A DNA stretch of 38,785 nt from Candidatus Saccharimonadota bacterium (GCA_017420185.1 JAFOJM010000041.1:1-38785), one strand, 5' to 3'; shown: positions 19,459 to 33,416, numbered from the stretch's first letter. The notes: generated by a model not told the origin, from the sequence alone. Translations and numbers: made by a program.

Positions 19459-19887
19459 ATGGCAGAAAAGAAAGTAATAGGCAATCTTAAACTACGCATC
19501 CCAGCGGGACGCGCTACGGCAGGACCTCCAGTAGGGTCTACATTGGGTCAGTGGGGACTAAATATGATGGATTTTATCAATCCATTTAACGAGAAGACCA
19601 AGGACCTAATGGGCAAAAATGTGATAGTACATATTCGTGTATTTGAAGACCGCACTTTTGACTGGAAGAGTTTGGGGCAGCCTGTAGACGACTTGATCCG
19701 TGAGGCCATCAAGATAGAGAAGGGTAGTGGTAAGCCAAATACCGACAAGGTGGGCAAGATCACTAGAGCCCAGCTCCAGGAAATCGCCGAGAAGAAGATG
19801 GATCAGCTCAATGCCGTCGATATAGAAGGTGCTATTAAGATAGTAGCTGGTACTGCTCGCTCGATGGGAGTAGAAGTCGTAGACTAA
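19459..19887 (+). CDS. rplK: 50S ribosomal protein L11
   Basis: PAGRATAGPPVGSTLGQ, GTARSMG. Confidence 0.98.
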   Translation: MAEKKVIGNLKLRIPAGRATAGPPVGSTLGQWGLNMMDFINPFNEKTKDLMGKNVIVHIRVFEDRTFDWKSLGQPVDDLIREAIKIEKGSGKPNTDKVGKITRAQLQEIAEKKMDQLNAVDIEGAIKIVAGTARSMGVEVVD

Positions 19888-19896
19888 TCTATACTT

Positions 19897-19957
19897 AAAA
19901 TCCACTCCAGAAGGGGTGGATTTTTGGTTTGCAAAAAAGGCCCCGAAAGGGGCCTTA
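19897..19957. terminator. Back-to-back terminators for rplK (+) and the convergent gene (-)
   Basis: AAAATCCACTCC-AGAA-GGGGTGGATTTTT and AAAAAAGGCCCC-GAAA-GGGGCCTT. Confidence 0.8.
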
Positions 19958-21124
19958 TGGCACATAAACATACTTAGCATATAGCATTGTGGCGATTTTG
20001 CGGTAACTGTCATCGTAGAATGGGCAGTCGCCATCCATTTCTGAGTAACTGCTAGTATCAAATAGCATCTTCCCTGTGACTCTTTGGAATCCTTTGTGTA
20101 AAAGCCTATATTGCAAGAGCGAGTTCTCGAGCCTTTCGATACACTGAGACCTGGCTGGACTATGCCGATAGGCGCTGGTGATGTTCGACATCTGAGAAAC
20201 GAATGTTTTCTTACTGATATTTTTGCCAGCCCACACTGAGCTGAAGTAAATGTGTACAGCATGAGGACTGCCAGGGCAAAGCTCGGAATCGGCTTTAAGC
20301 GCATCTAGCATGTAAATGTCCAGATCCGAATCAGCTACGCCGTAGCCCTTGAGGCGGGAACCGCCAATGAGAATTATCTCATCATCTTGCAAGTTGGCAA
20401 CCACTCTAGAGATATCTTTTCGCATAGTTTTGAAATTAGGTGAGAAGGGACCTTCTAAATGCGCATTTGGCGTGAGTAGGCGACCGGATAAATCTTGCTG
20501 ACGGTGAGCTAGCCACTTGAGGCGCGCGTCAGATATGTAGGTGGGCGGAAGCTTTCTCCGAGGCGGGACAATACCTATGGCTTCGTCAAGGCGACGAAGC
20601 TCAGTGCTAGGCAAAATCATTCTGTCCTGCATATAGTCTAGGGTATCTTTGAAACTCCTTAATAGTATTACATCATCATGATGTTCTTGGATGATTTTCA
20701 TCAGCTCATCTATGCTCAGGAAATTGTACTTGATAAGCCAAGGCGTAAGGTGGGCACATTTTACCACGCGCTCGACTTTGCCATTTGGCCTAGCATCCAC
20801 TTCAAAGACATCGCCTTCGAAGAAATTTTCTCGTACGTCGTAGACGCCAAGCAGCGAATACCATGCGGCCATATAGGTAGCCTTGAATTTCGCGGAGGCG
20901 CTTTGGAGTATTTCGAAAGGTAAGTACAACAGAATCCTACGATAATCTGAAGAAATCAGGAGAGATTGTACGGCGCTGTAAAGTTTTTTCCGGGCCGTAA
21001 ATGGATTTGTGATAACACTGGTTGGATCTAAGTAGTAACAGATTGTTTCGGTAGCTTTTCGCCTTTTGTCATCCATAATATGATCAGATGCGAAACGTTC
21101 GATAATCGGAATGGAATAATTCAT
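19955..21124 (-). CDS. Hypothetical protein with a C-terminal minimal nucleotidyltransferase (pol-beta superfamily) motif
   Basis: ILIGGSRLKGYGVADSDLDIY fits hG[GS]x9-13DxD; start at ATG 21124 after SD GAAAGGAG. Confidence 0.7.
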   Translation of the reverse strand: MNYSIPIIERFASDHIMDDKRRKATETICYYLDPTSVITNPFTARKKLYSAVQSLLISSDYRRILLYLPFEILQSASAKFKATYMAAWYSLLGVYDVRENFFEGDVFEVDARPNGKVERVVKCAHLTPWLIKYNFLSIDELMKIIQEHHDDVILLRSFKDTLDYMQDRMILPSTELRRLDEAIGIVPPRRKLPPTYISDARLKWLAHRQQDLSGRLLTPNAHLEGPFSPNFKTMRKDISRVVANLQDDEIILIGGSRLKGYGVADSDLDIYMLDALKADSELCPGSPHAVHIYFSSVWAGKNISKKTFVSQMSNITSAYRHSPARSQCIERLENSLLQYRLLHKGFQRVTGKMLFDTSSYSEMDGDCPFYDDSYRKIATMLYAKYVYVP

Positions 21125-21298
21125 CTTATTCTCCTTTCTGTATGTTAATGTGCTGAAAATATTATAACATAGACTGTGTATTTGTGTACTATAACAACAT
21201 AAGTATGTGATTTGGCTATGGTAAGAGATTGACTTTTTAGCCAAATATAGTACGATAATAATGTGAATTAGTATCTTAACAATCAAGGAGGAGTAGCG

Positions 21299-22501
21299 AT
21301 GGCAAAACCTGTAAAAGAAATTCGGGCTAATACTTACGCGGACGACATAAAAGAGATAAGAAAACCTCTAGCTTGGACGTCAACATTCGTTATCGTAGCG
21401 GCTTTGTTGGTTTGGATTACTCCCGCTCTTGACAGCCAAAAAGCGTACGATGCGTTTCCGAAGTATCAAGAGATTGCCATTATGGCAAACAGAGACCTTA
21501 ACACAGATCAGCGACAGATGCTAGTGGAGTGGGCGCCAAACTTAAGCACCGACGACCTAGATAAAGATGGATTCCTAAAGCCTCGTGAAATGCCAAAGAC
21601 TTTTATAGAGGCGTTTCTGAAGTATCTGCCTGATGCGGCTATGATACTGTTATTTATTTTTTCGGTACTTGTGGTTGCGTTTTATTGGCTTTACCGGCAA
21701 ACGTGTTTTTATTTTGCTAATCTACCGCTTAGGAGTTTCTGGGGATGGTTTGTCCTTATTGCTGGCTTTGTGGGCTGGCCGTATTTTATCGTGTCCAGAA
21801 TACTGCTTTGGCGCTTTAAAAAGCGTAGAGGTGACGAGGCAGAAATAATTACAGCTAGACTTCCTGACATCAAACCAAAGTGGCAGGAGAAGGATTTTAT
21901 CGAGTTTTACCATGATATGTTGCCTTTTCGTAAACGTTTGGCTCGCGCAAGGAAAAACCTAGCTGAATCCGAAAATGAGGTTAAGATCTTGGAGGAGAAG
22001 CTAAAAAACGATGTAGCCGCCCTTGAGAGTGCGCAATCTTATATGAGCCGTAATCTTGCTAAGCTAAATGCATTGAAGTCTATGGAGAATACGGATGTAT
22101 CAATCCAGCCATACTTGCAGCGGGCATTGCATGATTTTGCAGAAATAAAAGCAATGCGTGGTGTAAAACAGATTTACTTAGACGACAATAAAAATCTAAT
22201 AATCGTAGTTCGATGCGTATACGAGTACTCTGGCCTAGCATATGACGCTGGTGATTTTGAGATCCAAATAAGCGACGGTCGTGTCACAGCTCGCCAGACA
22301 AGAAGCGTAGGTGGCTTTTATAACTATGGCGAGAACTTTTGTTTTGGCAACAGTCGTGTGGTGATAAATGACTACGCCGCCGAAGGTCGCCTAGTGGAGG
22401 CAATAGCGCTGGCCGTCGAAAGTCTCAGCCATATCAACGAAGAGGATATACAGTCTTTCCTAAAGCACAGCAAAGTTGTTGCAAAGAAACTAATTGACTA
22501 A
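21299..22501 (+). CDS. Membrane-anchored coiled-coil protein with a C-terminal putative prokaryotic E2-like domain
   Basis: Three TM segments, coiled coil, then MRGVK..YDAGDFEI..NFCFGN..SLSHIN; paralogous to the next ORF; SD AAGGAGG. Confidence 0.6.
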   Translation: MAKPVKEIRANTYADDIKEIRKPLAWTSTFVIVAALLVWITPALDSQKAYDAFPKYQEIAIMANRDLNTDQRQMLVEWAPNLSTDDLDKDGFLKPREMPKTFIEAFLKYLPDAAMILLFIFSVLVVAFYWLYRQTCFYFANLPLRSFWGWFVLIAGFVGWPYFIVSRILLWRFKKRRGDEAEIITARLPDIKPKWQEKDFIEFYHDMLPFRKRLARARKNLAESENEVKILEEKLKNDVAALESAQSYMSRNLAKLNALKSMENTDVSIQPYLQRALHDFAEIKAMRGVKQIYLDDNKNLIIVVRCVYEYSGLAYDAGDFEIQISDGRVTARQTRSVGGFYNYGENFCFGNSRVVINDYAAEGRLVEAIALAVESLSHINEEDIQSFLKHSKVVAKKLID

Positions 22502-22563
22502 TTCACGCGCCCTAGCCGGATGGCTAGGGTATTTTTAAAGTCTCAATACATAATTCGCCGTAT

Positions 22564-22592
22564 TTGACAGGAGTGGTGTAATATGTTAGGAT
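22564..22592 (+). promoter_or_regulatory. Sigma70 promoter for the E2-like/JAB/Ubl operon
   Basis: TTGACA-17-TAGGAT with extended TG, following a terminator at 22510-22537. Confidence 0.65.
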
Positions 22593-22652
22593 AATATAAG
22601 GCGAAGATTTTGCTAATCTTTGTACTTTAAAAAGAAGAAAGGTTGTGAAGAA

Positions 22653-23489
22653 ATGGCTGAGTCTAAGAAGGCCATGCAAGACGATGAGTATCGCGATAGC
22701 TTAGAGAAAGTTGCACGATTTATCGCGGAGTATCGGACTGATGTAGCAAAAAGATCGATCCATACGATTGGAGCAATTATCGACTGCTATAGTTTCGACC
22801 CTCTTTTCTGCGCGGATGAAATTAATGCCCTGAGTGAGGCGAGAAACAAAATGGCGGTGGTGGCCGCCGATGAAGATGCTCGCTATGAGTGCCTGGTGGC
22901 AGAAGATGTTTTGGCACAGCTGTTGGCTATTCGCGGCGTAAAATCGGTGGGGGTTTCTATCGATGAAGCTGGCGAAAAGCTGCTTACCATCATGATTCAG
23001 GCTTATTATCTGCACAATGGCTACGTTTACGACGCTGGCCTTTGGGAATGGATGGTACCTACGGTAGGCAGGGCAACAGCGGGATATACGCTATATCCGG
23101 GTACGTACACGACCGAGGACGTATTGGAAGATGGAACTCCTTGCCTTATTGAGGCCGATTTTTTGGAGGGCATCTTTACCGACTCCACAGGAGCGAAAAA
23201 ATCCCATCCGTTTTACGGCGGCTGGAGCGGCTTTTGCTTCGGCTCAATGGACGCCGAGATTAAAAATTATCTCCTGACTGGGGATTTCGTATCGGCTTTC
23301 CAGCTGATATCGCTTTGCCTGCATCATATTAACCCCTCCGACAAGTGTCTCATCGTGCAGTATTTTGAAAGGGTAGACGATATGGATATCTGCGACATAG
23401 CGAGATACTTTGGTCTGAACACAAAAGAAACTGAGCTGGTGTCGGCTATGCGAAATACCCTCGAATGTCTAAACGATACTGAAGACTAG
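22653..23489 (+). CDS. Putative prokaryotic E2 (ubiquitin-conjugating-like) protein
   Basis: IRGVK..YDAGLWEW..SHPFYGGWSGFCFG (HP..C spacing resembling UBC folds), then a helix ending CLHHINP; adjacent to JAB and Ubl. Confidence 0.6.
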   Translation: MAESKKAMQDDEYRDSLEKVARFIAEYRTDVAKRSIHTIGAIIDCYSFDPLFCADEINALSEARNKMAVVAADEDARYECLVAEDVLAQLLAIRGVKSVGVSIDEAGEKLLTIMIQAYYLHNGYVYDAGLWEWMVPTVGRATAGYTLYPGTYTTEDVLEDGTPCLIEADFLEGIFTDSTGAKKSHPFYGGWSGFCFGSMDAEIKNYLLTGDFVSAFQLISLCLHHINPSDKCLIVQYFERVDDMDICDIARYFGLNTKETELVSAMRNTLECLNDTED

Positions 23490-23511
23490 CGTAAAGGAGG
23501 GCTTAAACCGT

Positions 23512-24123
23512 ATGTATAGTAATCTCTCGACTCCGGAGGTATCTCAGAGCTATCGGCTAATTATTGATATAGAGCTATATCAATATATAATGACGCTGGC
23601 ACAGGAATCTACGCCCAACGAAATAATCGGTATGGGCGCAATCGTGAAAGAATACCACAAGCATTATACGGATTTTATCCTGACGGATGTAATAGTACCA
23701 GAGCAATATGTTTCGCCGGGATACTGCGCTTTTAAGGAGGGCGCCCAAAACAAGATTATCAGAGACGTGATTGAAGGCGGTGGTAATCCAGAAGAACTGT
23801 GTTTTCGATGGCATTCACACGCCAATGGTCCGGTGTTTTTCTCGTTGCTAGACGAGGAGGATATCGCTAATTGCGATTCGCCTTATGTAGTAAATATGGT
23901 AATAAACGCCAAGCATGAGATGATAGCAAGGCTTGATGTGTTTGAGCCGGTGCATTTTCGCAATATACCAGTGAGCATCATAATCAAGCCTATACCCTAT
24001 GAGGGGCTCATCGTAGAATGTCAAGAAAATATCAGGTCATGCTGCGAAACAATTACTCGTAAGGATGGGCCCAAGGGGCGCATTACGAGAATTATGCCTA
24101 ACGGCAGAAAGGAGCGTTCGTGA
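23512..24123 (+). CDS. JAB/MPN+ (JAMM) zinc metalloprotease, deubiquitinase-like
   Basis: PNEIIG (catalytic Glu), VIVPEQ, WHSHANGPVFFSLLD = HxHx7SxxD. Confidence 0.9.
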   Translation: MYSNLSTPEVSQSYRLIIDIELYQYIMTLAQESTPNEIIGMGAIVKEYHKHYTDFILTDVIVPEQYVSPGYCAFKEGAQNKIIRDVIEGGGNPEELCFRWHSHANGPVFFSLLDEEDIANCDSPYVVNMVINAKHEMIARLDVFEPVHFRNIPVSIIIKPIPYEGLIVECQENIRSCCETITRKDGPKGRITRIMPNGRKERS

Positions 24124-24190
24124 TATAGCGATATCGTATATAATCAAACATCGTACTAAAGGATTATATTTAGACTAAGGAGGAACAAAT

Positions 24191-24472
24191 ATGTCTATGA
24201 TTAAAAGAACGTCAACAATCCAATCCACAACTCAGAATACCACCGAGACAATGGACAACACGAAGGTGCGCATCGCCAACGGCGCCGGCAGAAAGCCCAT
24301 TATAGTTGACTACATCCAGGGGGAGACCTTTGAAGGCCTGTTTGCTCGCACCGGCGTGCGACCGCACGTGGGACAGATCGTGACAAACGGCAAGAAGCAT
24401 GTGCGCGACTTTCACGATCTGGTTGAGCCCGGTACAACCATTGTCATAGCTAATCGGCCAAATAACGGCTGA
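24191..24472 (+). CDS. Ubiquitin-like (beta-grasp) small protein with C-terminal Gly
   Basis: KVRIANG..IIVDY..GETFEGLF..G..VTNG..LVEPGTTIVIANRPNNG*; ThiS/MoaD/Prok-Ub pattern; strong SD; terminator at 24491-24518. Confidence 0.75.
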   Translation: MSMIKRTSTIQSTTQNTTETMDNTKVRIANGAGRKPIIVDYIQGETFEGLFARTGVRPHVGQIVTNGKKHVRDFHDLVEPGTTIVIANRPNNG

Positions 24473-24533
24473 GCGGCGACCTTTCTTCTTAAATCCACCC
24501 TTAGCCGGGTGGATTTTTATAGGGGGTAGACAT

Positions 24534-24562
24534 TTGACATTTTACAGAAATTTTGATATAGT
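24534..24562 (+). promoter_or_regulatory. Sigma70 promoter for the pseudokinase-vWA-PurA-like operon
   Basis: TTGACA-17-TATAGT with extended TG. Confidence 0.7.
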
Positions 24563-24638
24563 TATAAGGATATCCCTTTGCATACAACAGGGGTATTGAT
24601 GTTTAAAAATATGTTTTACAGAAAGGAAGTGATGAAAA

Positions 24639-25442
24639 TTGAAAGTTCGAGACGTAAGGATAGACAATAGAATTGGCGAATCCGCCAAAGTTCACATCTA
24701 TCTAGGAACCGCAGAAGACGATTCACGCGTAATCGTGAAGGTATCAAAGACTTTTGAAGATGGCAATATTTTGGCTAAAGAAGCTATTCGGTTTGGCCTG
24801 ATGCATACTTTTTACCAGAAGGCGGTAGTACCAGCACTAGAAGCGCCCGACGTGAAGAACCCGCATTTCGATTGGCTATTTGCCAGGTTGTTATCTTCTT
24901 TTATGGATCCGTTCCAGGAAGATCGGCGTGTTAATATATTAACAGTGCCCGATACTAGCGTTGCCAAGCTAACGCCATTGGCGAAGCTGCGCGACAAGAC
25001 CGAAATAGACACTCGCACCAGTGTATGGATACTGGGGAGACTTTTTAAGTTTTACGGCTTTTTCGAGATAATGGCGATTGCCGATAATAGTTCTGCGGCG
25101 AGGTATCCTCTTTTTTCACCTGGGGATTATTTACTGGGACCAGAAAGACATCGTTTGATCTACTACAATTATTCGGGCGATATGACCGCTGTGATAGCTA
25201 ACGATTTTGTTAAAAAAGTCACTGGGTATATCAAAGACTGGACAGTAGGAGATGATAACGATGCGGACAAGCGATATCTTGAACTTATCAAAGACCTTTC
25301 GGAAAATGGACGTGAATCATTTGAACATGCGCATGGTGAGCTCTATCGACTAGCGAACGAGCTGTGGGGGATAAAATATCACCCATTTACTTATCGCGAC
25401 TGCGAGACTTACACATGGAAAACTATCAAGGAGGAAAACTAA
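24639..25442 (+). CDS. Ser/Thr protein-kinase-fold protein, probably a pseudokinase
   Basis: IGES..HIYLG (subdomain I), VIVKV (II), LAKEA (III), VWILGRLF, FSPGDYLLGPERHRLIYYNYS (degenerate VIb/VII). Confidence 0.65.
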   Translation: MKVRDVRIDNRIGESAKVHIYLGTAEDDSRVIVKVSKTFEDGNILAKEAIRFGLMHTFYQKAVVPALEAPDVKNPHFDWLFARLLSSFMDPFQEDRRVNILTVPDTSVAKLTPLAKLRDKTEIDTRTSVWILGRLFKFYGFFEIMAIADNSSAARYPLFSPGDYLLGPERHRLIYYNYSGDMTAVIANDFVKKVTGYIKDWTVGDDNDADKRYLELIKDLSENGRESFEHAHGELYRLANELWGIKYHPFTYRDCETYTWKTIKEEN

Positions 25443-26521
25443 TGGGAACAGGAACATTTTCGGTAGATAGTTATCGCGCTGCACGCCGCGAATACGGCGT
25501 GATGCACGACGTAGGAATAACCAAAGAAGCAGAGGAGCGAGCTCAGCAAACCGGTAAGCTCAGTGAGATTGTAGACCCGGCGATAGATCCGGTTCGCAGA
25601 TCACTGATTCGACTGGCTCCTCATCAAAAGAAGTGGATGGTTACCGTAGGGTGCCCGATGGATATCGAGGTAACTTGCGACACCACTGGCTCGATGGGTG
25701 GCGAGGTCGATACGGAAATGGCCGTGCTGCCAGAGCTATACGAAGCTGTGGCAAAAGTATTGCCCGGATACGACCCGCAGTTGTGTTTGGGTATATTTGG
25801 CGACGTGCTTGATGATTTCGTGCTGTGCCGTCCGCAATTTGAGATGGAAGCACCTAAAATTGTGCGTTACCTCAAAGAGATGGCCCCGCAACGTGGTGGG
25901 TACGACGAGCCGGAGGACCCACAATATGCGATGTTCGCGAGGGCATATTTAACCAGTACCTACGTCAACCGCATTGGTCTGAAGGGCTACCATTTCGTAG
26001 TGACAGATGCAACTTGCCATACGTGTATCGAACGAGAAGAAATTAAGCGTATTTTTGGAAAGGAGATTTTCGAAAATGAGCTCAAGGATATGACAAGCAT
26101 CCCTACGTTGCAAGAAGTGATCTCGAAATTAAAAGACAATACGCATCAGTTCGTACTGGCGCTCAATTCCTATGTCGCTTCTTTTTGGAGAGAATTATGC
26201 GGCGATAGGTCAGTAGTCAGAATCGACTCCACTCGTCAGCTGCCGGCAGTAATATCTGCTATTATCGGCTTGACCGAGGGAACAATGGATATCGCTGAGA
26301 TAGCCGAACATCTTGGAAGAAGTGCGTCCACGCGAGTGGTGGAAGATATTGCTTATATCGATATTGGCGCACAGGCTAGGTTGCGGCATAAATGGCGTAT
26401 CCCTGTACCGAAAAAAGGTGACATTTTTGCCCATAAGGGCGATCTCTCACCGATGCAGCCCGGAGATGCCGCGGAAGCGGATACAGAAGCAGAAGCCACA
26501 GATCAAATTAGATATCTGTAG
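25442..26521 (+). CDS. von Willebrand factor A (vWA) domain protein
   Basis: MIDAS DTTGSM, IFGD, GG..EPED, KGYHFVVTD; start overlaps the upstream stop (TAATG). Confidence 0.85.
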   Translation: MGTGTFSVDSYRAARREYGVMHDVGITKEAEERAQQTGKLSEIVDPAIDPVRRSLIRLAPHQKKWMVTVGCPMDIEVTCDTTGSMGGEVDTEMAVLPELYEAVAKVLPGYDPQLCLGIFGDVLDDFVLCRPQFEMEAPKIVRYLKEMAPQRGGYDEPEDPQYAMFARAYLTSTYVNRIGLKGYHFVVTDATCHTCIEREEIKRIFGKEIFENELKDMTSIPTLQEVISKLKDNTHQFVLALNSYVASFWRELCGDRSVVRIDSTRQLPAVISAIIGLTEGTMDIAEIAEHLGRSASTRVVEDIAYIDIGAQARLRHKWRIPVPKKGDIFAHKGDLSPMQPGDAAEADTEAEATDQIRYL

Positions 26522-26546
26522 ACAAAGCAATACGGAGGTGTTGGCC

Positions 26547-27860
26547 TTGCAAAGGATTTATGTCATAACAGACCTTGGCCCCGGCGACGGAGGCAAAGGC
26601 AACATTGTGCATAGTCTTGCACGAAAAATTGATGCCGATGTGATTATCAAGCGCGGTGGTGCACAGGGATCGCACGGCGTGCAAACTTCCTATGGCGAGA
26701 AATTTAATTTTTCCCAGTGGGGTTGCGGAACATTCGAAGGCATACCGACTTTTTTGTCAAGGCAGATGGTGATTTCACCTGTAGGGCTTTGGAACGAAGC
26801 GGGCGCATTGGAAAGGAACGGGATTTATAATCCTTTTATGCTCTTGTCGTGCGATAGATCGTGTATTGCGGCCACACCTTTCCACAGGATTGCTTCACAA
26901 GTAGAGGAGCTTCTACGCAGAGATAATCCGCGTGGGACGGTAGGAACCGGTGTCGGCCAGGCAAGCCGTATGTATTACGACACAGGTAAATGTATGACGG
27001 TACGAGCCTATGAACTGACGAGGCGAGAGGTGGTCCGCCTTAAACTGCAGCGACAAAGGGACCACTACAAAGAACTGTACGCTAGGATCTCAAGAAATGA
27101 TGTCTTGCCCGGCGACGCAGAGACTCTCACGAGGGCGCTCATGTTACTAGACGATGATGATTTCATGAACTACTGCGTAGATCTATTCGAGAAAGTCGGT
27201 AAAAAACTACATTTCGATGGTCTGGACGACGTGCTCAGACGCAACCGCTCTGCTATAGTGGAGTGCTCGCACGGCGTGCTTACGGATGCAGTCTCTGGAC
27301 TGCGGCCGCACGTAAGTGCCATTCGGACACTACCCGAGATAACCGAGCATATGCTGCGTTCGGCGGGATACAGAGGACAAATCATCCACTACGCTGTTCA
27401 TCGTGCCTATGAAATTCGGCACGGAGCTGGTCCTATGCCAACCTACGACCCAGAGTTCACGGCGCAGATGTTGCCTAATAGCCATAAAGATGAAAACCGT
27501 TGGCAGGGCAAGGTACGCGCCGGTGCACTGGATCTGAATCTGATGCGCTATGCGCTTAACGCCTGCAAAGAAACTAAATTTGATGGGCTTTGTCTGACTT
27601 GGTTTGACCAGATTTTGGCACATGGACGTAATTGGCAATTATGCGATAGTTATCTGTATGAGGCCGGCAAGACAGAATCGTACATTAACTACCTAAAGCG
27701 AGCTATGCCCATTGTTTCTGAGTACCACATTGATGAACCCATCAGTACGCGGGACCTTTTTTCATTCGTAGGAGAAGTAATTCAAAATTCCTTGGGTATT
27801 CCACTCAAAATACTTTCGGTGGGGCCAACGGAATTAGATCAAATTTACTATTTTGACTAA
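26547..27860 (+). CDS. Adenylosuccinate synthetase-like (PurA-family) protein, divergent accessory clade
   Basis: DLGPGDGGKG P-loop, GGAQGSHGV, RGTVGTGVG, ECSHGVL, RAYEIRHGAGPMPT, WQGKVRAG.LD, SVGPT; TTG start after GGAGGTG. Confidence 0.85.
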   Translation: MQRIYVITDLGPGDGGKGNIVHSLARKIDADVIIKRGGAQGSHGVQTSYGEKFNFSQWGCGTFEGIPTFLSRQMVISPVGLWNEAGALERNGIYNPFMLLSCDRSCIAATPFHRIASQVEELLRRDNPRGTVGTGVGQASRMYYDTGKCMTVRAYELTRREVVRLKLQRQRDHYKELYARISRNDVLPGDAETLTRALMLLDDDDFMNYCVDLFEKVGKKLHFDGLDDVLRRNRSAIVECSHGVLTDAVSGLRPHVSAIRTLPEITEHMLRSAGYRGQIIHYAVHRAYEIRHGAGPMPTYDPEFTAQMLPNSHKDENRWQGKVRAGALDLNLMRYALNACKETKFDGLCLTWFDQILAHGRNWQLCDSYLYEAGKTESYINYLKRAMPIVSEYHIDEPISTRDLFSFVGEVIQNSLGIPLKILSVGPTELDQIYYFD

Positions 27861-27870
27861 GGAGGACAAT

Positions 27871-29067
27871 ATGAGTAACGAAGCAAAAAACATCACCCCT
27901 GAAACTACCACAGCTACACCTATTACCGCAAGCGAGGTGCGTTCCAAGCTTGCGGAGTACGGCGCCAACAAGACTACTATCGATAAGATTGTAGACGAGC
28001 TCGGCGTCGAAGATGTCGATGACTTGGCTTCTTTGGAAGTCAATGATTTTACGAACGCGGGAATGAAACTGGCAAAAGCCAAAAGACTCGTGAAGGATCT
28101 GCAGTCTACTGCAAAGTCCGCCGCCGTCCAGGCTGTAGCCGCTGCGGAAACGCGCGCTATTCGGAGCCAGTTTGAGGGATTGCTACCCGTGGTGCCAAAC
28201 GACGAATCGTGGCTGGACGCATTGAAATCCGGCGGCGTCTTGAAGGTAGACGAGTCGTCTTACATCGCTGCTATCCGTGCAGCGTTAGCCGACAAGGCTG
28301 GCCTTTATGATGTTCCGGAAGCTCTCGCCAGAGCCATGGAGAAATACGCCGACGAGACTGAAGAGCAGGTCGACCCGACTTTTTATACTTTGCGCAAGTC
28401 TCTAACCCGGCGCGCGTATGGCGACATCTTTGCCGCCATCGACGGACTGGACGGGACTTTTATCACCGAAAAACGTCGCAGAGAGTTCCTCAGCCGCGTC
28501 CGCGATACTCTTTGGCCGGCTATTGCCGAAAGCTACAGTGTGCTGGATGGTTGGGATAAGGCCTGGAGAGGCAGCTTCTCGGATCCATCCATGCTGGTGG
28601 CCGCCATTAGTGGTGGGCTTAGCGGAAGCGCGGTTGCTGGGATGAGCATGATTGCCCCGCCCGACACTGGTCAGCTGCACGATGCTGGAGATACACTGAT
28701 TGATGCAATTAACAGCATTTTCCGTGGCACCGGCGTGCAAGTGGCTGCTGCTATGGCCTACGACGCAAATACTATCCGTAATACGTTGGAAGACCCGCGC
28801 TTGCCGGCTATGGTAGGCGTGAAGAATCGTGAGCTGATGCTGAAGAAAATCGGCGCCAGCGTATCCAGCAACTACGTTCGCCTGGAGCAGAATCTGGTGA
28901 AATATGTGCTAGGATTTGCCAAGCACGACGCGGTAACCTCCGACGTAGAAGTTAACTATTTTGAGGCGCTCTATCAGCTGGGCACCCAGATTAACTGGAA
29001 TGAGCTCGACGGAGCCCGTGGTAACTGTATTGGCGTGACCAGCCTGACCGGCGAGCATATTCTGTAA
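27871..29067 (+). CDS. Hypothetical helical protein with an N-terminal SAM-like domain
   Basis: DELGVEDVDDLASLEVNDFTNAGMKLAKAKRL resembles SAM helices; SD AAGGAGG; terminator GGCCCCT-ATAT-AGGGGCC-TTTTT at 29079-29101. Confidence 0.75.
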   Translation: MSNEAKNITPETTTATPITASEVRSKLAEYGANKTTIDKIVDELGVEDVDDLASLEVNDFTNAGMKLAKAKRLVKDLQSTAKSAAVQAVAAAETRAIRSQFEGLLPVVPNDESWLDALKSGGVLKVDESSYIAAIRAALADKAGLYDVPEALARAMEKYADETEEQVDPTFYTLRKSLTRRAYGDIFAAIDGLDGTFITEKRRREFLSRVRDTLWPAIAESYSVLDGWDKAWRGSFSDPSMLVAAISGGLSGSAVAGMSMIAPPDTGQLHDAGDTLIDAINSIFRGTGVQVAAAMAYDANTIRNTLEDPRLPAMVGVKNRELMLKKIGASVSSNYVRLEQNLVKYVLGFAKHDAVTSDVEVNYFEALYQLGTQINWNELDGARGNCIGVTSLTGEHIL

Positions 29068-29135
29068 AACATTTTTATGGCCCCTATATAGGGGCCTTTT
29101 TCTTGCATCTTGTTATCTATTGCCCCTGTTATATT

Positions 29136-29164
29136 TTGACATATTTAGCCAATAGTGCTATAAT
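29136..29164 (+). promoter_or_regulatory. Perfect-consensus sigma70 promoter with no long ORF directly downstream
   Basis: TTGACA-17-TATAAT with extended TG. Confidence 0.75.
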
Positions 29165-29244
29165 TAGGATTATGGGGATGGATTTCCGTGTCCAATAAGG
29201 TAAATAAATAATAGAGGGACATAGAGAAACTACGTCTCTTTTTC

Positions 29245-29273
29245 TTGCCAAGGAGTAAGAAATTTGGTATAAT
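29245..29273 (+). promoter_or_regulatory. rplA promoter
   Basis: TTGCCA-17-TATAAT with extended TG. Confidence 0.75.
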
Positions 29274-29293
29274 AATGGTAGATTAATTTAACC

Positions 29294-29321
29294 GTGGGAG
29301 GAGAGTATCCGATAGCACCAC
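29294..29321 (+). promoter_or_regulatory. L1-binding autoregulatory mRNA leader
   Basis: GTGGGAGGAGAGTATCCGATAGCACCAC mimics the 23S L1-binding site (GUGGGAG...ACCAC); immediately 5' of the rplA SD. Confidence 0.75.
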
Positions 29322-29335
29322 AGAAAGGAAACATT

Positions 29336-30253
29336 ATGACCGAAGAAGAGGTCAAAAATAACGAAAATATTGAAGCTACAGAGGTAGTCGAGGAAGTTAC
29401 AAATGTAGCTGAGCCAGAGACTTTTGCTAAGTCTGGCAAAAAATCTAAGAAACATATAGAAGAGGTAAAAGCTGAGGCAGAACGCCAGGCTCGCAAAGAA
29501 GACCGCAAGGCCGCCGAAATAGCAGAGAAGCCTAAGGGTGCTGCGCCGGTAACTCGCCCCAAGATAGAGCGTCGCGGAAAGAAATATCAGGAAGCTGCGA
29601 AGCTAGTAGAAAAAGGTAAGGCATACACACTAAATGACGCCATCGAACTAGCTATCAAATCTAGCCCAGTAAAGTTTGATGCCAGCGTAGAAATACACGC
29701 CAGGCTCGGTGTAGACCCTAGACAAGCCGATCAAAATATTCGCACAACTCTAGTGCTACCAAATGGTAACGGCAAGACTGTACGTGTAGCTGTGTTTGCA
29801 CCAGCTGATGTATGCAAGGCTGCCAAAGCCGCAGGCGCAGATATTGCCGAAGATGAAGAATTTTTAAAACAACTAGAAAAGGGCACAATAGACTTTGACG
29901 TACTAATTTCGACACCGCAATACATGCCAAAACTTGGTAAGTTTGCAAGGTTGCTTGGACCAAAAGGTTTAATGCCAAATCCAAAGGCTGGCACCGTGAC
30001 TATGGATGTGGAGAAGGCCGTAAAAGAAGCCAAGGCTGGTAAGGTGGAATACCGCGTAGATAAGCAAGCTATAGTACATATAGGCGTAGGCAAGGTATCT
30101 TTCGGAGCAGACAAGCTTATCGAAAATGCTAATACATTCTTTGAGAGCCTTAAATCTCAGAAGCCTGCATCGCTAAAAGGTAGCTATGTAAAGTCTGTAT
30201 TTATTACCACTACTATGGGTCCATCAATTGCTATAGAAAATCTCTATAATTAA
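29336..30253 (+). CDS. rplA: 50S ribosomal protein L1 with a charged N-terminal extension of about 75 aa
   Basis: KFDASVE, LGVDPRQADQNIR, LGPKGLMPNPKAGTVT, TTMGPS. Confidence 0.98.
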   Translation: MTEEEVKNNENIEATEVVEEVTNVAEPETFAKSGKKSKKHIEEVKAEAERQARKEDRKAAEIAEKPKGAAPVTRPKIERRGKKYQEAAKLVEKGKAYTLNDAIELAIKSSPVKFDASVEIHARLGVDPRQADQNIRTTLVLPNGNGKTVRVAVFAPADVCKAAKAAGADIAEDEEFLKQLEKGTIDFDVLISTPQYMPKLGKFARLLGPKGLMPNPKAGTVTMDVEKAVKEAKAGKVEYRVDKQAIVHIGVGKVSFGADKLIENANTFFESLKSQKPASLKGSYVKSVFITTTMGPSIAIENLYN

Positions 30254-30323: not shown

Positions 30324-31292
30324 TTAGTTTCCTATTGTATTACCGAGCCTTGGCGTCTTGACAGCGTTGAGTCCATTGTTGCTGCCAAGGGATCTTGAGG
30401 CGCCGTTTTTCTTCTGAGCCGTATTAAGAACTTCTGCGATATTGTCTATGTAATTAATACCGCTATCGCCAATATCTGTAATGACAGCCGTTTCAAAATA
30501 ATATAAATCTGCCGCACTCATTAAAACTGTAAGATTTGTACCTTCAATTGCTCCTATATCAAAGTAAATATAGTCTTTGCCATCTACAATTTCTGTTCCC
30601 ATAACCACGGAATCGCCATAGGTGGTTTTGAGACCGTCAACAATCTCATCAAGGCTGTTTACGAGGGTAGTATATGTATAGTCATTATAGTAGCATATAT
30701 CGGCAAGATAGACGTCGGGAAGGTCAGAGATGGCAAGACATTCTGTACCAGTCTCGTCTTCGTAGATTTCATACTCGTAACTAGCCGGGACACTAAACTC
30801 ATATCCTGCATATGATATTTTAGTATCATAGTTACTGGTAGTAGGCACATACGTACTCCCATTATTGTTAGATGAGCTCCCGTTGCTGGAAGGCGTAGCG
30901 GTGTTATTACTGCCACCGCTGCCATTATTGTTGTTATTGCTGTTGAGGGCCATCATTATACCCGTTACTCCAACCGCTAGACACACCACGCAGGCAGCCG
31001 CCATGGCTATTATTTTGCCATTGGACTGTTTTTGTGACGTATTGGCCAGGGGGGTCTGTGACGATATCGAGCCAAAAGGCTGCATAGGTGCTGGCTGGAC
31101 CGACATATTTGAGGCTCCTGTGGTAGAAGGGCCCGCAAACTGATTGATCGGCGCGGAGGGCGCTGACGGAATTGCGGTACCCGCTGTGGGGCCCACTGGC
31201 GACTGCGCCGTATTGGCGACGGCCGCTCCACAATTAGTACAGAAGGCTGTTCCTTCTATTATTTGGTGTCCACATTTCTCACATTGTTTCAT
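30324..31292 (-). CDS. Zinc-ribbon, single-TM protein with an extracellular domain
   Basis: CEKCG...FCTNCG, P/S/T-rich linker, TM, Asn/Ser low-complexity tract. Confidence 0.85.
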   Translation of the reverse strand: MKQCEKCGHQIIEGTAFCTNCGAAVANTAQSPVGPTAGTAIPSAPSAPINQFAGPSTTGASNMSVQPAPMQPFGSISSQTPLANTSQKQSNGKIIAMAAACVVCLAVGVTGIMMALNSNNNNNGSGGSNNTATPSSNGSSSNNNGSTYVPTTSNYDTKISYAGYEFSVPASYEYEIYEDETGTECLAISDLPDVYLADICYYNDYTYTTLVNSLDEIVDGLKTTYGDSVVMGTEIVDGKDYIYFDIGAIEGTNLTVLMSAADLYYFETAVITDIGDSGINYIDNIAEVLNTAQKKNGASRSLGSNNGLNAVKTPRLGNTIGN

Positions 31293-31310
31293 TTTACTCC
31301 TTTCATGTTA

Positions 31311-33416
31311 TTAATTAATATGAACCAAATTTAATTGATGCGAATCTCCTTGGGTATCGTATACGATGAATTCTGCGTAATAGTCTTTGGTATTTTTAAA
31401 TTTTCCATCGTAGATATCGCCAAAATCATAATCCAAATCTACTAGTTTTATTTTGTAGGTGTCGCCTTTTTCTATGCTGGCCTCAGAGCCGTATAATACT
31501 CCATGGCTTTCAAAGTTATAATCTAGCTCACCTGAATCGCTGAATAGCTTATATGTTCCAGTCATAAAATCGATGAATGCGATTTTGTCTGGGTCGAGAT
31601 TCATCTTGCTGGCTAGGCCAGTATCTGATTCTGACTGCACGCGAATATCTCTAACCTGCCCCTCGTTATTGCCGGGCAAAATCCTGATGTGAGTTTCGTG
31701 GTTTTTTAGGGAAAAGCCCAGGGGAGAATCATCGGTGTAACCGAGAAGTCCAAACGAGATATAGTCAGCATAGTTTGCCGTGCGCTCTTTTTCAAACATA
31801 GCCGACCAGCCGTATTCTATTGAACCGTCCGCCTTATATACTTCCACTACAAACTGCAGATCATACGAGGTAGCACGCAATTTATTGCCATCTAACTCAA
31901 CTTCGGAGCTACGATAGACAGGCATAAAAACATTGTCATCGAGCTTGCGGAATATTGCGATTTCTCCACTTTGGTAATTGTCTCTTAGCTCATCGGGGAG
32001 GTCGATTTCTATGGCATTATCAGCTGTTTTGTTTTCTGATAGATCACTATACGTCCTATTTGCAACTTTACGATCCCCCGTAACGAAACCTTTGTATTTG
32101 ACGAGAAAATCATAGTATTTATCAGAAAAGACAACATCTCTGTATTTTTCGAGCATTTCTTCGGCAAGGGCTTTGTTGAAATTTAGGAAATACACAGAAA
32201 GACCATTAGTGTTGTCTATGTTACTACGACTATACTGCACTACATCGTCAAAATCTTCCTTAATCTTATCCACCTCTGCGCCGTGAGTGTTGTTTAGGCT
32301 TTGACATAGGTCCATTAAATCCACTAAATCATACGATTCGCTGTCCCTACCAGTGTATCCGTAAACTTTTTCTCTGGTCATAGTACGTGAATATTGAGAA
32401 AAAGTCTGATTGGTGATTTCGTCTTTGACGGCAGTAAACAACGACTCTACCGACGTAATTAAGGAACTTATTTTTCTTAGATTTACTAAGGACATAGACA
32501 GGTCTGAGTCATACCAATAGTCGTCATATGACACAACGTAATGGTCAATAATGCTGCGCCCAAGGTCTTCGGTAGTGTTAATTTGACCGTCTCTACCGAG
32601 GTCATCTAGAAAAGCATAATCCCAGCCATTGCCAGGCTCTGTTTCTTCCGAGGCGACCATATAATCGCTATAGTTGCTCAGTATATTAGCGACTTCCATA
32701 CTGCCCATTAGACAAGCATCGAAGCCAATTAGGTCGAATTTTTTACCGCTAGTAATAATGTTTGTATTGGCTAGGGCGTCTGATAGTACTGAAAGCTTCA
32801 TGGTAGACCCAGAGAGTGAATTTTCATCCTTGCCATAACCAAAGATTGGACCGCCACCGTGGTCCCATAGTATCAGATCATAAAGGTCCGCCGGATAGTT
32901 GTCATACGCGTAATTAATAAAACTGGTAAGATTATCTGGGTTGGTCATTAGGCTTTTTTCGTAAGTCTGCAATTTAGTAATTTGACCATTGCTTACCTCA
33001 AAAATTGCATTTTCTTCTGCGTTAATTTCGTCGAGCGCCCATTTTTTGGTGCCTCCTGTATATATAAGCAATTTGGTGTGCTCCGGGTCAAAATTAGCGT
33101 TTTCCATTTCTGTAATGTCTAGGCTTGCCGCCGCCATTTGGCTTTCTAGATCAGAGCCAATCATATAGACCATAATGGTGCGATCTTTGCTTCCAATACT
33201 TAGGGCGAATGCAATAATAGCTATCGTTACGGCAACTCCCAGTACTGCAGGAATACCTATGCCAAGCCAGAGCTTTTTGCTGGATTTTTTGGGCCCAGCA
33301 GTGAGGCTGGTTGATGTCGGCATTGCTATCTGCAGAGATCCGCAGTTGCCACAAAATCTCTGCCCTACCTGAATATTGACTCCGCAACGTGGACAAAATT
33401 TATTTTGATAATCCAT
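31311..33416 (-). CDS. Clostripain-family (peptidase C11) cysteine protease with N-terminal zinc ribbon and TM anchor
   Basis: CPRCG..FCGNCG; TIMVYMIGSDLES, LWDHGGG (His), GFDACLMG (Cys), ASEETEPG.GWDY. Confidence 0.92.
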   Translation of the reverse strand: MDYQNKFCPRCGVNIQVGQRFCGNCGSLQIAMPTSTSLTAGPKKSSKKLWLGIGIPAVLGVAVTIAIIAFALSIGSKDRTIMVYMIGSDLESQMAAASLDITEMENANFDPEHTKLLIYTGGTKKWALDEINAEENAIFEVSNGQITKLQTYEKSLMTNPDNLTSFINYAYDNYPADLYDLILWDHGGGPIFGYGKDENSLSGSTMKLSVLSDALANTNIITSGKKFDLIGFDACLMGSMEVANILSNYSDYMVASEETEPGNGWDYAFLDDLGRDGQINTTEDLGRSIIDHYVVSYDDYWYDSDLSMSLVNLRKISSLITSVESLFTAVKDEITNQTFSQYSRTMTREKVYGYTGRDSESYDLVDLMDLCQSLNNTHGAEVDKIKEDFDDVVQYSRSNIDNTNGLSVYFLNFNKALAEEMLEKYRDVVFSDKYYDFLVKYKGFVTGDRKVANRTYSDLSENKTADNAIEIDLPDELRDNYQSGEIAIFRKLDDNVFMPVYRSSEVELDGNKLRATSYDLQFVVEVYKADGSIEYGWSAMFEKERTANYADYISFGLLGYTDDSPLGFSLKNHETHIRILPGNNEGQVRDIRVQSESDTGLASKMNLDPDKIAFIDFMTGTYKLFSDSGELDYNFESHGVLYGSEASIEKGDTYKIKLVDLDYDFGDIYDGKFKNTKDYYAEFIVYDTQGDSHQLNLVHIN

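Follow-up and report, generated by a model that had tools for sequence, protein, structure and literature searches.

The genes of the ribosomal proteins L11 and L1, rplK and rplA, are separated by nine accessory genes in a Candidatus Saccharimonadota bacterium, which raises the question of whether these nine genes form one system or two. The window analyzed here is the whole stretch of 38,785 nucleotides (GCA_017420185.1 JAFOJM010000041.1:1-38785), part of an assembly of 694,670 bases that is 78% complete. The order and orientation of the nine genes between rplK (19459-19887, Pfam L11) and rplA (identified by Pfam L1), as given in a first-pass annotation made from the sequence alone, are confirmed by open reading frame (ORF) calls and Pfam. 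That annotation also proposed a single multi-component system, which our comparisons do not support; instead, the genes fall into two modules, each self-contained elsewhere. We consider it probable that two independently travelling modules met at the rplK-rplA gap, a permissive site, within a single small clade. Module B would be a ubiquitin-like tagging pathway with a membrane-bound E2 and an E1 acting in trans, and module A would make a modified purine nucleotide. The genome of the window is called G000, and its closest relatives are G194, G201, G229, and G337. The genes of the island are as follows.

19955..21124, minus strand: g1, module A, protein of 389 amino acids (aa) whose C-terminal part has a minimal nucleotidyltransferase motif (Pol-beta/MNT-type) and whose N-terminal part belongs to no known family
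21299..22501, plus strand: g2, module B, membrane-anchored E2-like protein with three predicted transmembrane helices, a coiled coil, and a UBC-like domain with an FCFG cysteine
22653..23489, plus strand: g3, module B, soluble E2-like paralogue (HPFY...FCFG)
23512..24123, plus strand: g4, module B, JAB/JAMM metallopeptidase (Prok-JAB, E 1e-5, over cut-off)
24124..24190, plus strand: putative E1 scar, 67 bp, at the site of the E1 gene in relatives (comparison by eye)
24191..24472, plus strand: g5, module B, putative single-domain ubiquitin-like (Ubl) protein ending in NNG
24639..25442, plus strand: g6, module A, kinase-like protein without HRD and DFG, predicted pseudokinase
25442..26521, plus strand: g7, module A, vWA-like protein with a MIDAS-like DTTGS motif
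26547..27860, plus strand: g8, module A, adenylosuccinate-synthetase (PurA)-like protein with GTP and catalytic motifs intact and the aspartate loop rebuilt (Pfam, E 1.6e-33)
27871..29067, plus strand: g9, module A, SAM/HhH-like N-terminal domain and an all-helical body that carries a hydrophobic, Gly-rich loop

Each module is found complete without the other. An E2 profile matched 30 of 369 genomes of the genus, and 23 were kept at E below 1e-50; seven weak matches (G345, G388, G292, G299, G380, G178, and G293) and five more in a sample of 400 other genomes of the phylum were partial matches to membrane or coiled-coil segments and were dropped. With the window excluded, E2, JAB, E1, and Ubl genes share one locus in 21 of 22 mapped relatives, the remaining contig ending after E2, and the order is membrane E2-JAB-E1-Ubl in 18. 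The same four genes recur in another family of the order (G049), and E2 lies beside E1 in two genomes of the phylum sample. Module A is a conserved unit of five genes: pseudokinase, vWA, PurA-like protein, SAM/helical protein, and a convergent nucleotidyltransferase (NTase). Among 22 PurA-like loci collected with g8, with flanks of up to 10 kb, the vWA gene lies upstream in every case, the pseudokinase gene in 20 (the other two are cut by contig ends), and g9 downstream in 20, and the NTase gene converges on the end of the PurA-like operon in 21. None of these 22 flanks holds an E2, JAB, or Ubl gene. Thus the divergent NTase gene noted in the first-pass annotation is present, but it belongs to module A, which that annotation missed.

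The modules are adjacent in only three of the 23 E2-bearing genomes (G000, G194, and G201). G229 and G337 carry both on different contigs, and in G201 the JAB, E1, and Ubl genes are on another contig. No module A match is present in 10 of the 22 other E2 genomes, and 31 of 43 module A genomes lack a strong E2 match. The two convincing E2 genomes and the three vWA-PurA genomes of the phylum sample do not overlap. G000 and its four closest relatives form one rplA clade (support 93/96) in a tree that left out G391 (split) and three module A genomes in which no rplA was found. Trees of E1 and JAB recover this five-genome clade (100 and 99), including the E1 on contig C41 of the G000 assembly, described below. 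In contrast, approximately unbiased (AU) tests reject the clade for all five module A genes (PurA-like, p 1.6e-6; pseudokinase, 3e-4; g9, 4e-4; NTase, 1.5e-4; vWA, 0.03), which argues that module A has been exchanged independently.

The rplK-rplA gap is a permissive site. In 30 module-free genomes, rplK abuts rplA in 15, the two are 0.8-1.5 kb apart or inverted in 11, and rplK is not within 1.5 kb of rplA in four. Separately, rplK is inverted relative to rplA in seven of 85 genomes examined (L163, L164, L166, L181, L195, L204, and L206). The order in G194 and G201 is rplK, module A, NTase, E2 genes, rplA, and in the window the g6-g9 block has moved to the end. The simplest account that we can infer is duplication of an ancestral rplK-A-B-rplA array followed by reciprocal loss, since the module A terminator stands at both ends of the island and the promoter and leader of g6 resemble those 5′ of the pseudokinase gene in G194 and G201. 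This terminator, a GGCCCC-loop-GGGGCC hairpin, has two copies in the whole 695 kb assembly, one per island end (19939 and 29079), and relatives have one between g9 and the convergent NTase gene. Quick trees hinted at a foreign origin for the g6-g9 block of the window, but a careful g9 tree is itself weakly supported. A 17-nt inverted repeat at 24607 and 29060 was rejected as a mobile-element end; its arms are an ordinary leader and the g9 stop region.

Predicted promoters and hairpins fit the roughly four transcription units, each with its own promoter and terminator, that had been proposed: g1 (minus strand), g2, g3-g5, and g6-g9. The signals at these boundaries are listed here.

19898..19925, plus strand: hairpin and T-run 3′ of rplK, predicted rplK terminator (from the sequence; repeats D2/I24; same hairpin type after rplK in G194, G201, and G337)
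19939..19954, no strand assigned: GGCCCC-loop-GGGGCC hairpin at the end of the NTase gene; the left one of the two copies of the shared module A terminator (sequence pattern)
22509-22530, plus strand: g2 terminator (g2 has its own promoter and terminator)
24491..24562, plus strand: hairpin 3′ of the Ubl gene, then the module A promoter TTGACA-17-TATAGT with an extended -10
29079..29096, plus strand: GGCCCC-loop-GGGGCC terminator 3′ of g9, right copy
29136..29164, plus strand: rplA promoter, perfect consensus (12/12 match), extended -10

Because rplA has its own perfect-consensus promoter, its expression would be independent of rplK. Promoter-like sites number 26, against 16.3±3.9 in shuffled sequences, and terminator-like sites 22, against 10.2±2.6. 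A further promoter-like site (11/12 match) lies within the JAB gene at 23564-23591. Start codons were refined from ribosome-binding sites and homologue alignments (g1 at 21124, not 21286; g3, 22653; g7, 25442; g8, 26547; g9, 27871). The G+C content of the island (0.40-0.55 per kb) is indistinct from that of the remaining window.

The gene order is also not an assembly chimera, because contigs from independent runs span it. Of 24 sequencing runs listed, 14 contain at least half of the sampled words, and four DNA runs were compared with the window. One contig of run X4 covers 22562-29700 with 18 differences and a second covers 19855-22565, while a contig of run X5 covers 22562-28286. The ORFs are open in four other runs, and no frameshifting indel is listed within g3-g9. 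At 22557-22565, between the g2 terminator and the g3 promoter, other strains carry extra DNA (138 letters in X7), and loose contig ends occur there in X2, X4, and X5 as well. A joint in X7 that bypasses the island was disregarded, one of its sides being 22 nt long. Contigs from RNA libraries (four runs, three studies) match parts of genes in both halves; these runs were picked using the window stretch itself, and DNA carry-over is possible.

In scans of the island proteins against Pfam, PADLOC, NCBIfam, and PHROGs, nothing was identified apart from JAB, the PurA-like protein, and a weakly matching SAM domain. The folds guessed in the first-pass annotation are largely borne out: JAB is confirmed by a Pfam match over cut-off, and E2, Ubl, and NTase are favored on weaker support. 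In g4 the motif WHSH-x7-S-x2-D is present, as in all 22 sequences aligned, and the JAMM site is intact. The Ubl C-terminal NG is invariant in 22 of 22 aligned sequences, and four of these have one extra residue, as expected if JAB trims Ubl. The Ubl profile matches SAMP2 and PF1061 weakly (E 0.08-0.09), and g5 is a candidate ubiquitin-like protein. The E1 found in relatives is a single ThiF-type domain of 215-245 aa. It contains GxGG and residues of the ATP site, its LxC(G/A)AR motif holds an invariant Cys, and no conserved Cys pairs were seen in it.

The candidate E2s share a catalytic Cys that follows an HP/P-x-Y segment. All 26 membrane-type E2s in one alignment have this Cys, and it is present in at least 90% of 33. 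The three membrane helices of g2 are predicted from hydropathy, and g2 and g3 are paralogues (tblastn of g3 to g2, E 2e-5). The soluble g3 type has been observed solely in the clade of the window, with similar proteins in G194, G201, and G337, and paralogues expand to as many as five E2-like ORFs in G194. One membrane paralogue of G194 (L079:7701-8594) lacks the cysteine motif and might be a non-catalytic adaptor. Stand-alone membrane/coiled-coil proteins in L110, L111, L112, and L113 match the N-terminal half of the E2 profile; they too are without the cysteine motif, and their surroundings include neither a JAB nor an E1 nor a Ubl gene. An AlphaFold model of g3 (pLDDT 75.9) gave repeated but weak alignments to UBC, UEV, and RWD chains (Z 3.5-5.0, rmsd about 3-8). 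These UBC/UEV alignments cover about 100-125 residues, and most matches other than coiled coils were to UBC, UEV, or RWD. The same model had no Foldseek match at E<=0.001, and the E2 sequence profile searched against the Protein Data Bank (PDB) returned coiled-coil matches, none of them informative.

The island itself has no E1 gene, a point missed in the first-pass annotation. The single ThiF gene of G000 lies instead on contig C41. It is full length and is followed by a predicted terminator of its own; in the E1 tree it falls together with the genes of the four closest relatives (support 100%). In the island, the 67 bp that separate JAB from Ubl retain an E1-like start (Tyr-Ser-Asp codons), an E1 stop, and the Ubl ribosome-binding site, in a comparison made by eye, with no statistic, with the E1 starts and ends of G194, G201, G229, and G337 and with the C41 E1. 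Judged by these sequences, the island has lost its E1 gene by deletion and keeps a scar in its place, and the cognate E1 of the same clade is the one on C41. Since C41 is short and the assembly incomplete, the assignment of C41 to this bin rests on the E1 tree and composition. Beside this E1 is an ORF that, from its motifs, we take to be purM-like (L043:1842-2834, minus strand); its G+C content is 0.54, compared with about 0.44 for the genome, and it is unexpected in a reduced Saccharibacteria genome.

With its parts assembled, module B is quite likely to be a thioester cascade that works at the inner membrane face without an E3, none being seen in the module. E1 would adenylate Ubl and form a thioester; E2 would then take Ubl from E1 and itself pick the target at the inner membrane face. 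JAB would trim or remove Ubl, and extra E2 paralogues would widen the range of targets. Phage proteins would be the likeliest of these, during entry or assembly, although by analogy with Bil we rate this particular assignment as an even chance. The chief alternative is a housekeeping or symbiosis function, in which the membrane E2 marks the cell's own membrane or pilus proteins, or host-contact proteins, rather than those of phages. The membrane anchor is conserved, the E1 and JAB trees agree for the most part with that of rplA and so point to long vertical inheritance, and neighbors in most loci are unannotated ORFs, not an obvious defense island. However, 23 of 369 genus genomes is few for a core function, and both the expansion of E2 paralogues and the related JAB-E1 pairs in phages (see below) argue against it. 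We regard it as unlikely.

Module B most likely works like Bil, from Cys-type E1 to Cys-type E2 with no E3, while lying outside Bil, Bub, and PRTRC membership. The comparisons with Bil, Bub, and 6d operons concern parts of the cited reports. As in BilABCD (PMC10557695, PMC11601596), Ubl, E2, JAB, and E1 are four separate genes, E1 and E2 carry Cys, a conserved Ubl glycine has an optional tail, and there is no E3. The Bil E1 is a multidomain protein (IAD-AAD-CYS, zinc), whereas the module B E1 consists of one ThiF-type domain, in which a single Cys is invariant. Moreover, the module B E2 has membrane helices and a coiled coil, unlike that of Bil, the G000 E1 is in trans, and the Bil order is Ubl-E2-DUB-E1 rather than E2-JAB-E1-Ubl (18 of 22). 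PADLOC models of BilA-C found no match in module B, and one of four E1s gave a partial BilD match. Bub operons (6E/DUF6527; PMC11601596) likewise combine a ThiF-like E1 with E2, Ubl, and JAB, and the module B E1 profile matches BubCD at E 1e-6. In Bub, E1 and E2 lack Cys, oxyesters are formed, and fusions and BubE occur; in module B both Cys are invariant and the genes unfused. No fifth conserved gene comparable to BubE was seen in the module B maps, whose flanking ORFs were not scanned for DUF6527.

The 6d operons are presumably linked to PRTRC/Prok-E2_D. Module B gives weak PRTRC_A and PRTRC_ThiF matches, with scores far below the cut-offs (14.4 vs 101.8; 19.2 vs 144.75), and the Atlas points toward a cluster with 39% Prok-E2_D. 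The 6d operons of Iyer et al. (PMC1779556) also contain Ubl, JAB, E1, and E2, and the membrane-type E2s of module B resemble them in lacking the classical His; a His also tends to follow the Cys in module B. That residue, described as absolutely conserved in 6d (PMC1779556), is part of the consensus CLHxVN in module B and is not invariant. The 6d JAB has an extra N-terminal alpha+beta domain, which g4 lacks (its Prok-JAB match starts at residue 22 of 203), and module B has a membrane anchor but not the 6d helical accessory protein. Type II CBASS unites a CD-NTase and a fused E1-E2 (Cap2) in one operon, whereas here E1 and E2 are separate genes and the nucleotidyltransferase g1 travels with module A, not with the Ubl genes. 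Finally, the E1 of G049 matches 88 phage records, and JAB-ThiF cassettes of phages (Dulem virus 41; Flavobacterium, Bacteroides, and Xanthomonas phages) hold genes related to the module B E1. JAB is upstream of E1 in one of two phage regions examined, that of Dulem virus 41, where JAB (E 9e-10) is directly 5′ of E1 (E 2e-33). This cassette (L225:2197-5627) consists of three unannotated genes, the last being JAB, followed by the ThiF-type E1, and could be a phage conjugation cassette. Its upstream gene has a CLG motif but shows no significant similarity to the E2 profile (probability 0.9%), and there is no Ubl match. No E2 relatives were found in viral contigs.

Module A is more widely dispersed. 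Its vWA profile matches 44 of 369 genus genomes, four of the 400 other phylum genomes (three of these matches adjoin a PurA-like gene), and 923 protein clusters among 7999 candidates. The nearest named records of g8 are mostly Saccharibacteria, several labelled Candidatus Nanosyncoccus, and many are from the ruminant gut. A homologous core of three genes (kinase-like, vWA, PurA-like) occurs in the same order on plasmids of Tsukamurella, Rhodococcus, Allorhizobium, and Variovorax, and hhalign supports homology to the Rhodococcus proteins (pseudokinase, 97%; vWA, 98.9%). A NUDIX-wHTH gene adjoins the core in all but the Variovorax locus of these four; in Patescibacteria, unlike these plasmid and phage operons, the core is accompanied by g9 and the convergent NTase gene, with no NUDIX-wHTH gene adjoining it. 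In five viral loci, vWA is followed by the PurA-like gene in each, with a kinase-like gene in four; one carries the whole five-gene set beside terminase-like genes, possibly at a prophage border. A search of the phage record collection found no vWA relatives. In two loci (L041:12528-14497 and L107:12095-13698), g9 and the NTase gene are separated by a second pseudokinase-vWA pair, which suggests that this pair is a variable specificity unit.

The proteins of module A are recognized mainly by motifs. In g1, G255-S256...D267-x-D269 is invariant in 16 of 16 aligned sequences, Pfam NTP_transf_2 is over cut-off in two of seven homologues scanned, and the profile weakly matches minimal nucleotidyltransferases (HI0073, E 0.0085). 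The third acidic residue of the MNT-type motif was not located, and g1 has no PADLOC match. The g6 alignment keeps the N-lobe Lys and Glu and lacks HRD and DFG, all motifs with established roles in kinases; the Rhodococcus homologue weakly matches kinase models, and we predict that g6 is a pseudokinase. In g7, residues D80, T81, T82, and S84 are invariant in 15 of 15 sequences and form what we take to be a MIDAS-like motif, from which its vWA label derives; g7 has no Pfam or PDB match. Sequence profiles of the pseudokinase and vWA proteins gave no significant informative match against the PDB. For g9, SAM_TNK matches at E 2.5e-4 and is over cut-off in two homologues, and an AlphaFold model (pLDDT 73.6) has a SAM/HhH-like head and a helical body. 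That model had no match at E<=0.001 in the PDB or BFVD and none from the Atlas. The Gly-rich loop brought to mind a pore-forming role, which is not claimed because the matches are non-significant (E>=0.75).

The PurA-like protein g8 belongs to the PurA fold family (PF00709). Residues G13, D14, G16, K17, G18, and H43 are invariant, and the catalytic Asp and guanine-binding Asp are kept. In PurA, GD-x-GKG is the P-loop, the Asp and His are catalytic, and a Thr/Arg loop binds aspartate. It is this Thr/Arg loop that has been replaced in g8, being four residues shorter in 13 of 13 family members aligned with two canonical PurAs. Further differences are EGAQ changed to ECSH, KLD changed to WFD, and the fixed vWA and pseudokinase partners. 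Phage PurZ has Ser in place of the catalytic Asp, which is invariant in g8. The TerY-P triad consists of vWA, a PP2C phosphatase, and an active kinase, whereas no phosphatase is among the five module A genes and the kinase motifs are missing. Tentatively, the PurA-like enzyme might couple an IMP-like nucleotide, in a GTP-driven reaction, to some amine that is not aspartate. In this scheme vWA would serve the enzyme as a scaffold and the pseudokinase as a switch, while g1 and g9 would be a modifier/effector pair in a nucleotide-stress or defense response. By analogy, a defense role is plausible for the genes of the island. That g8 is merely a divergent adenylosuccinate synthetase for purine salvage is very unlikely: there is a Pfam match, no second PurA was found in the G000 assembly, and C41 has the purM-like ORF, but the aspartate loop is replaced throughout, g8 scores 68-87 bits against purA cut-offs of ~400, G050 has both module A and a canonical PurA, and a vWA neighbor is present at every locus whose flank was covered.

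Several points weigh against two independently travelling modules as described here. The E2 fold match is weak (Z<=5), no Pfam E2 family matches any of 26 E2 members, and C41 is a 3.9 kb contig (G+C content 0.458) of an incomplete assembly. Module A occurs in 12 of the 22 other E2 genomes, compared with 31 of 346 without E2 (Fisher p 4e-7, uncorrected for kinship), so that the modules do co-occur elsewhere. G000, G194, and G201 retain the divergent NTase-E2 junction, and their NTases group together as a clade (96/99). The AU tests were made on quick trees without a mixture model, and the tree-aware test, which found no association signal in seven independent pairs, is a weak one whose 83-row sample is enriched for module-positive genomes and so biased against association.

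This enrichment, this junction, the presence of both modules in all five genomes of the clade, and the RNA-library contigs matching both halves would fit one integrated conflict system, in which Ubl machinery tags or processes a module A protein, or a module A nucleotide triggers conjugation, as in type II CBASS. We judge such integration improbable, given the many genomes with one module only, adjacency in three of 23, incongruent gene trees, the lack of signal in the seven pairs, and the separate contig for JAB, E1, and Ubl in G201. It would also be a long shot that a new bacterial ubiquitination pathway, with a membrane-tethered E2 and expanding paralogues tagging the episymbiont envelope (phage entry or host-contact apparatus), is coupled in this clade through the shared divergent promoter to the purine-nucleotide chemistry of module A. 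Similarly doubtful is the view that module B is decaying here, its E1 lost from the operon and the C41 copy a bin contaminant or uncoupled. The E1 scar, the incomplete assembly with its short contig, and the strain-level insertions between g2 and g3 are consistent with decay; however, all catalytic residues are intact, the ORFs remain open across runs, and the C41 E1 is full length, with a predicted terminator and a place among the E1s of the clade. We therefore retain the explanation of two modules joined locally.

No published description of module A, of module B, or of the plasmid and phage operons that share the module A core was found in the literature searched, although supplements of comparative-genomics papers may list such operons. 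Both halves appear undescribed. Their joining into a nine-gene island is a local feature of less importance than the modules themselves. On sequence grounds, module B appears to be a variant of bacterial ubiquitin-like conjugation with no earlier description found. If the interpretation is true, its four-protein cascade of ~1000 residues, with a minimal Cys-type E1 and a membrane-fixed E2, would be among the simplest known ubiquitin-like pathways and, within the literature searched, the first such pathway reported from Saccharibacteria. Its reconstruction in E. coli is feasible, and the membrane anchor limits where targets need to be sought. Because the E1 is split off, the case also shows that defense finders relying on operons can miss such systems. 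Module A would represent an enzyme family with a rebuilt substrate pocket, found in Patescibacteria, actinobacteria, proteobacteria, and phage contigs.

Two minor observations concern the right flank of the island. In the rplA product, the Pfam L1 domain is preceded by an N-terminal extension (29336-29570) of ~80-100 charged residues, and relatives have similarly long frames. The region 3′ of rplA (30324-33416, minus strand) encodes two zinc-ribbon proteins, one a membrane protein and the other a peptidase of the clostripain family (Peptidase_C11, E 3e-47), a pair also present in G229.

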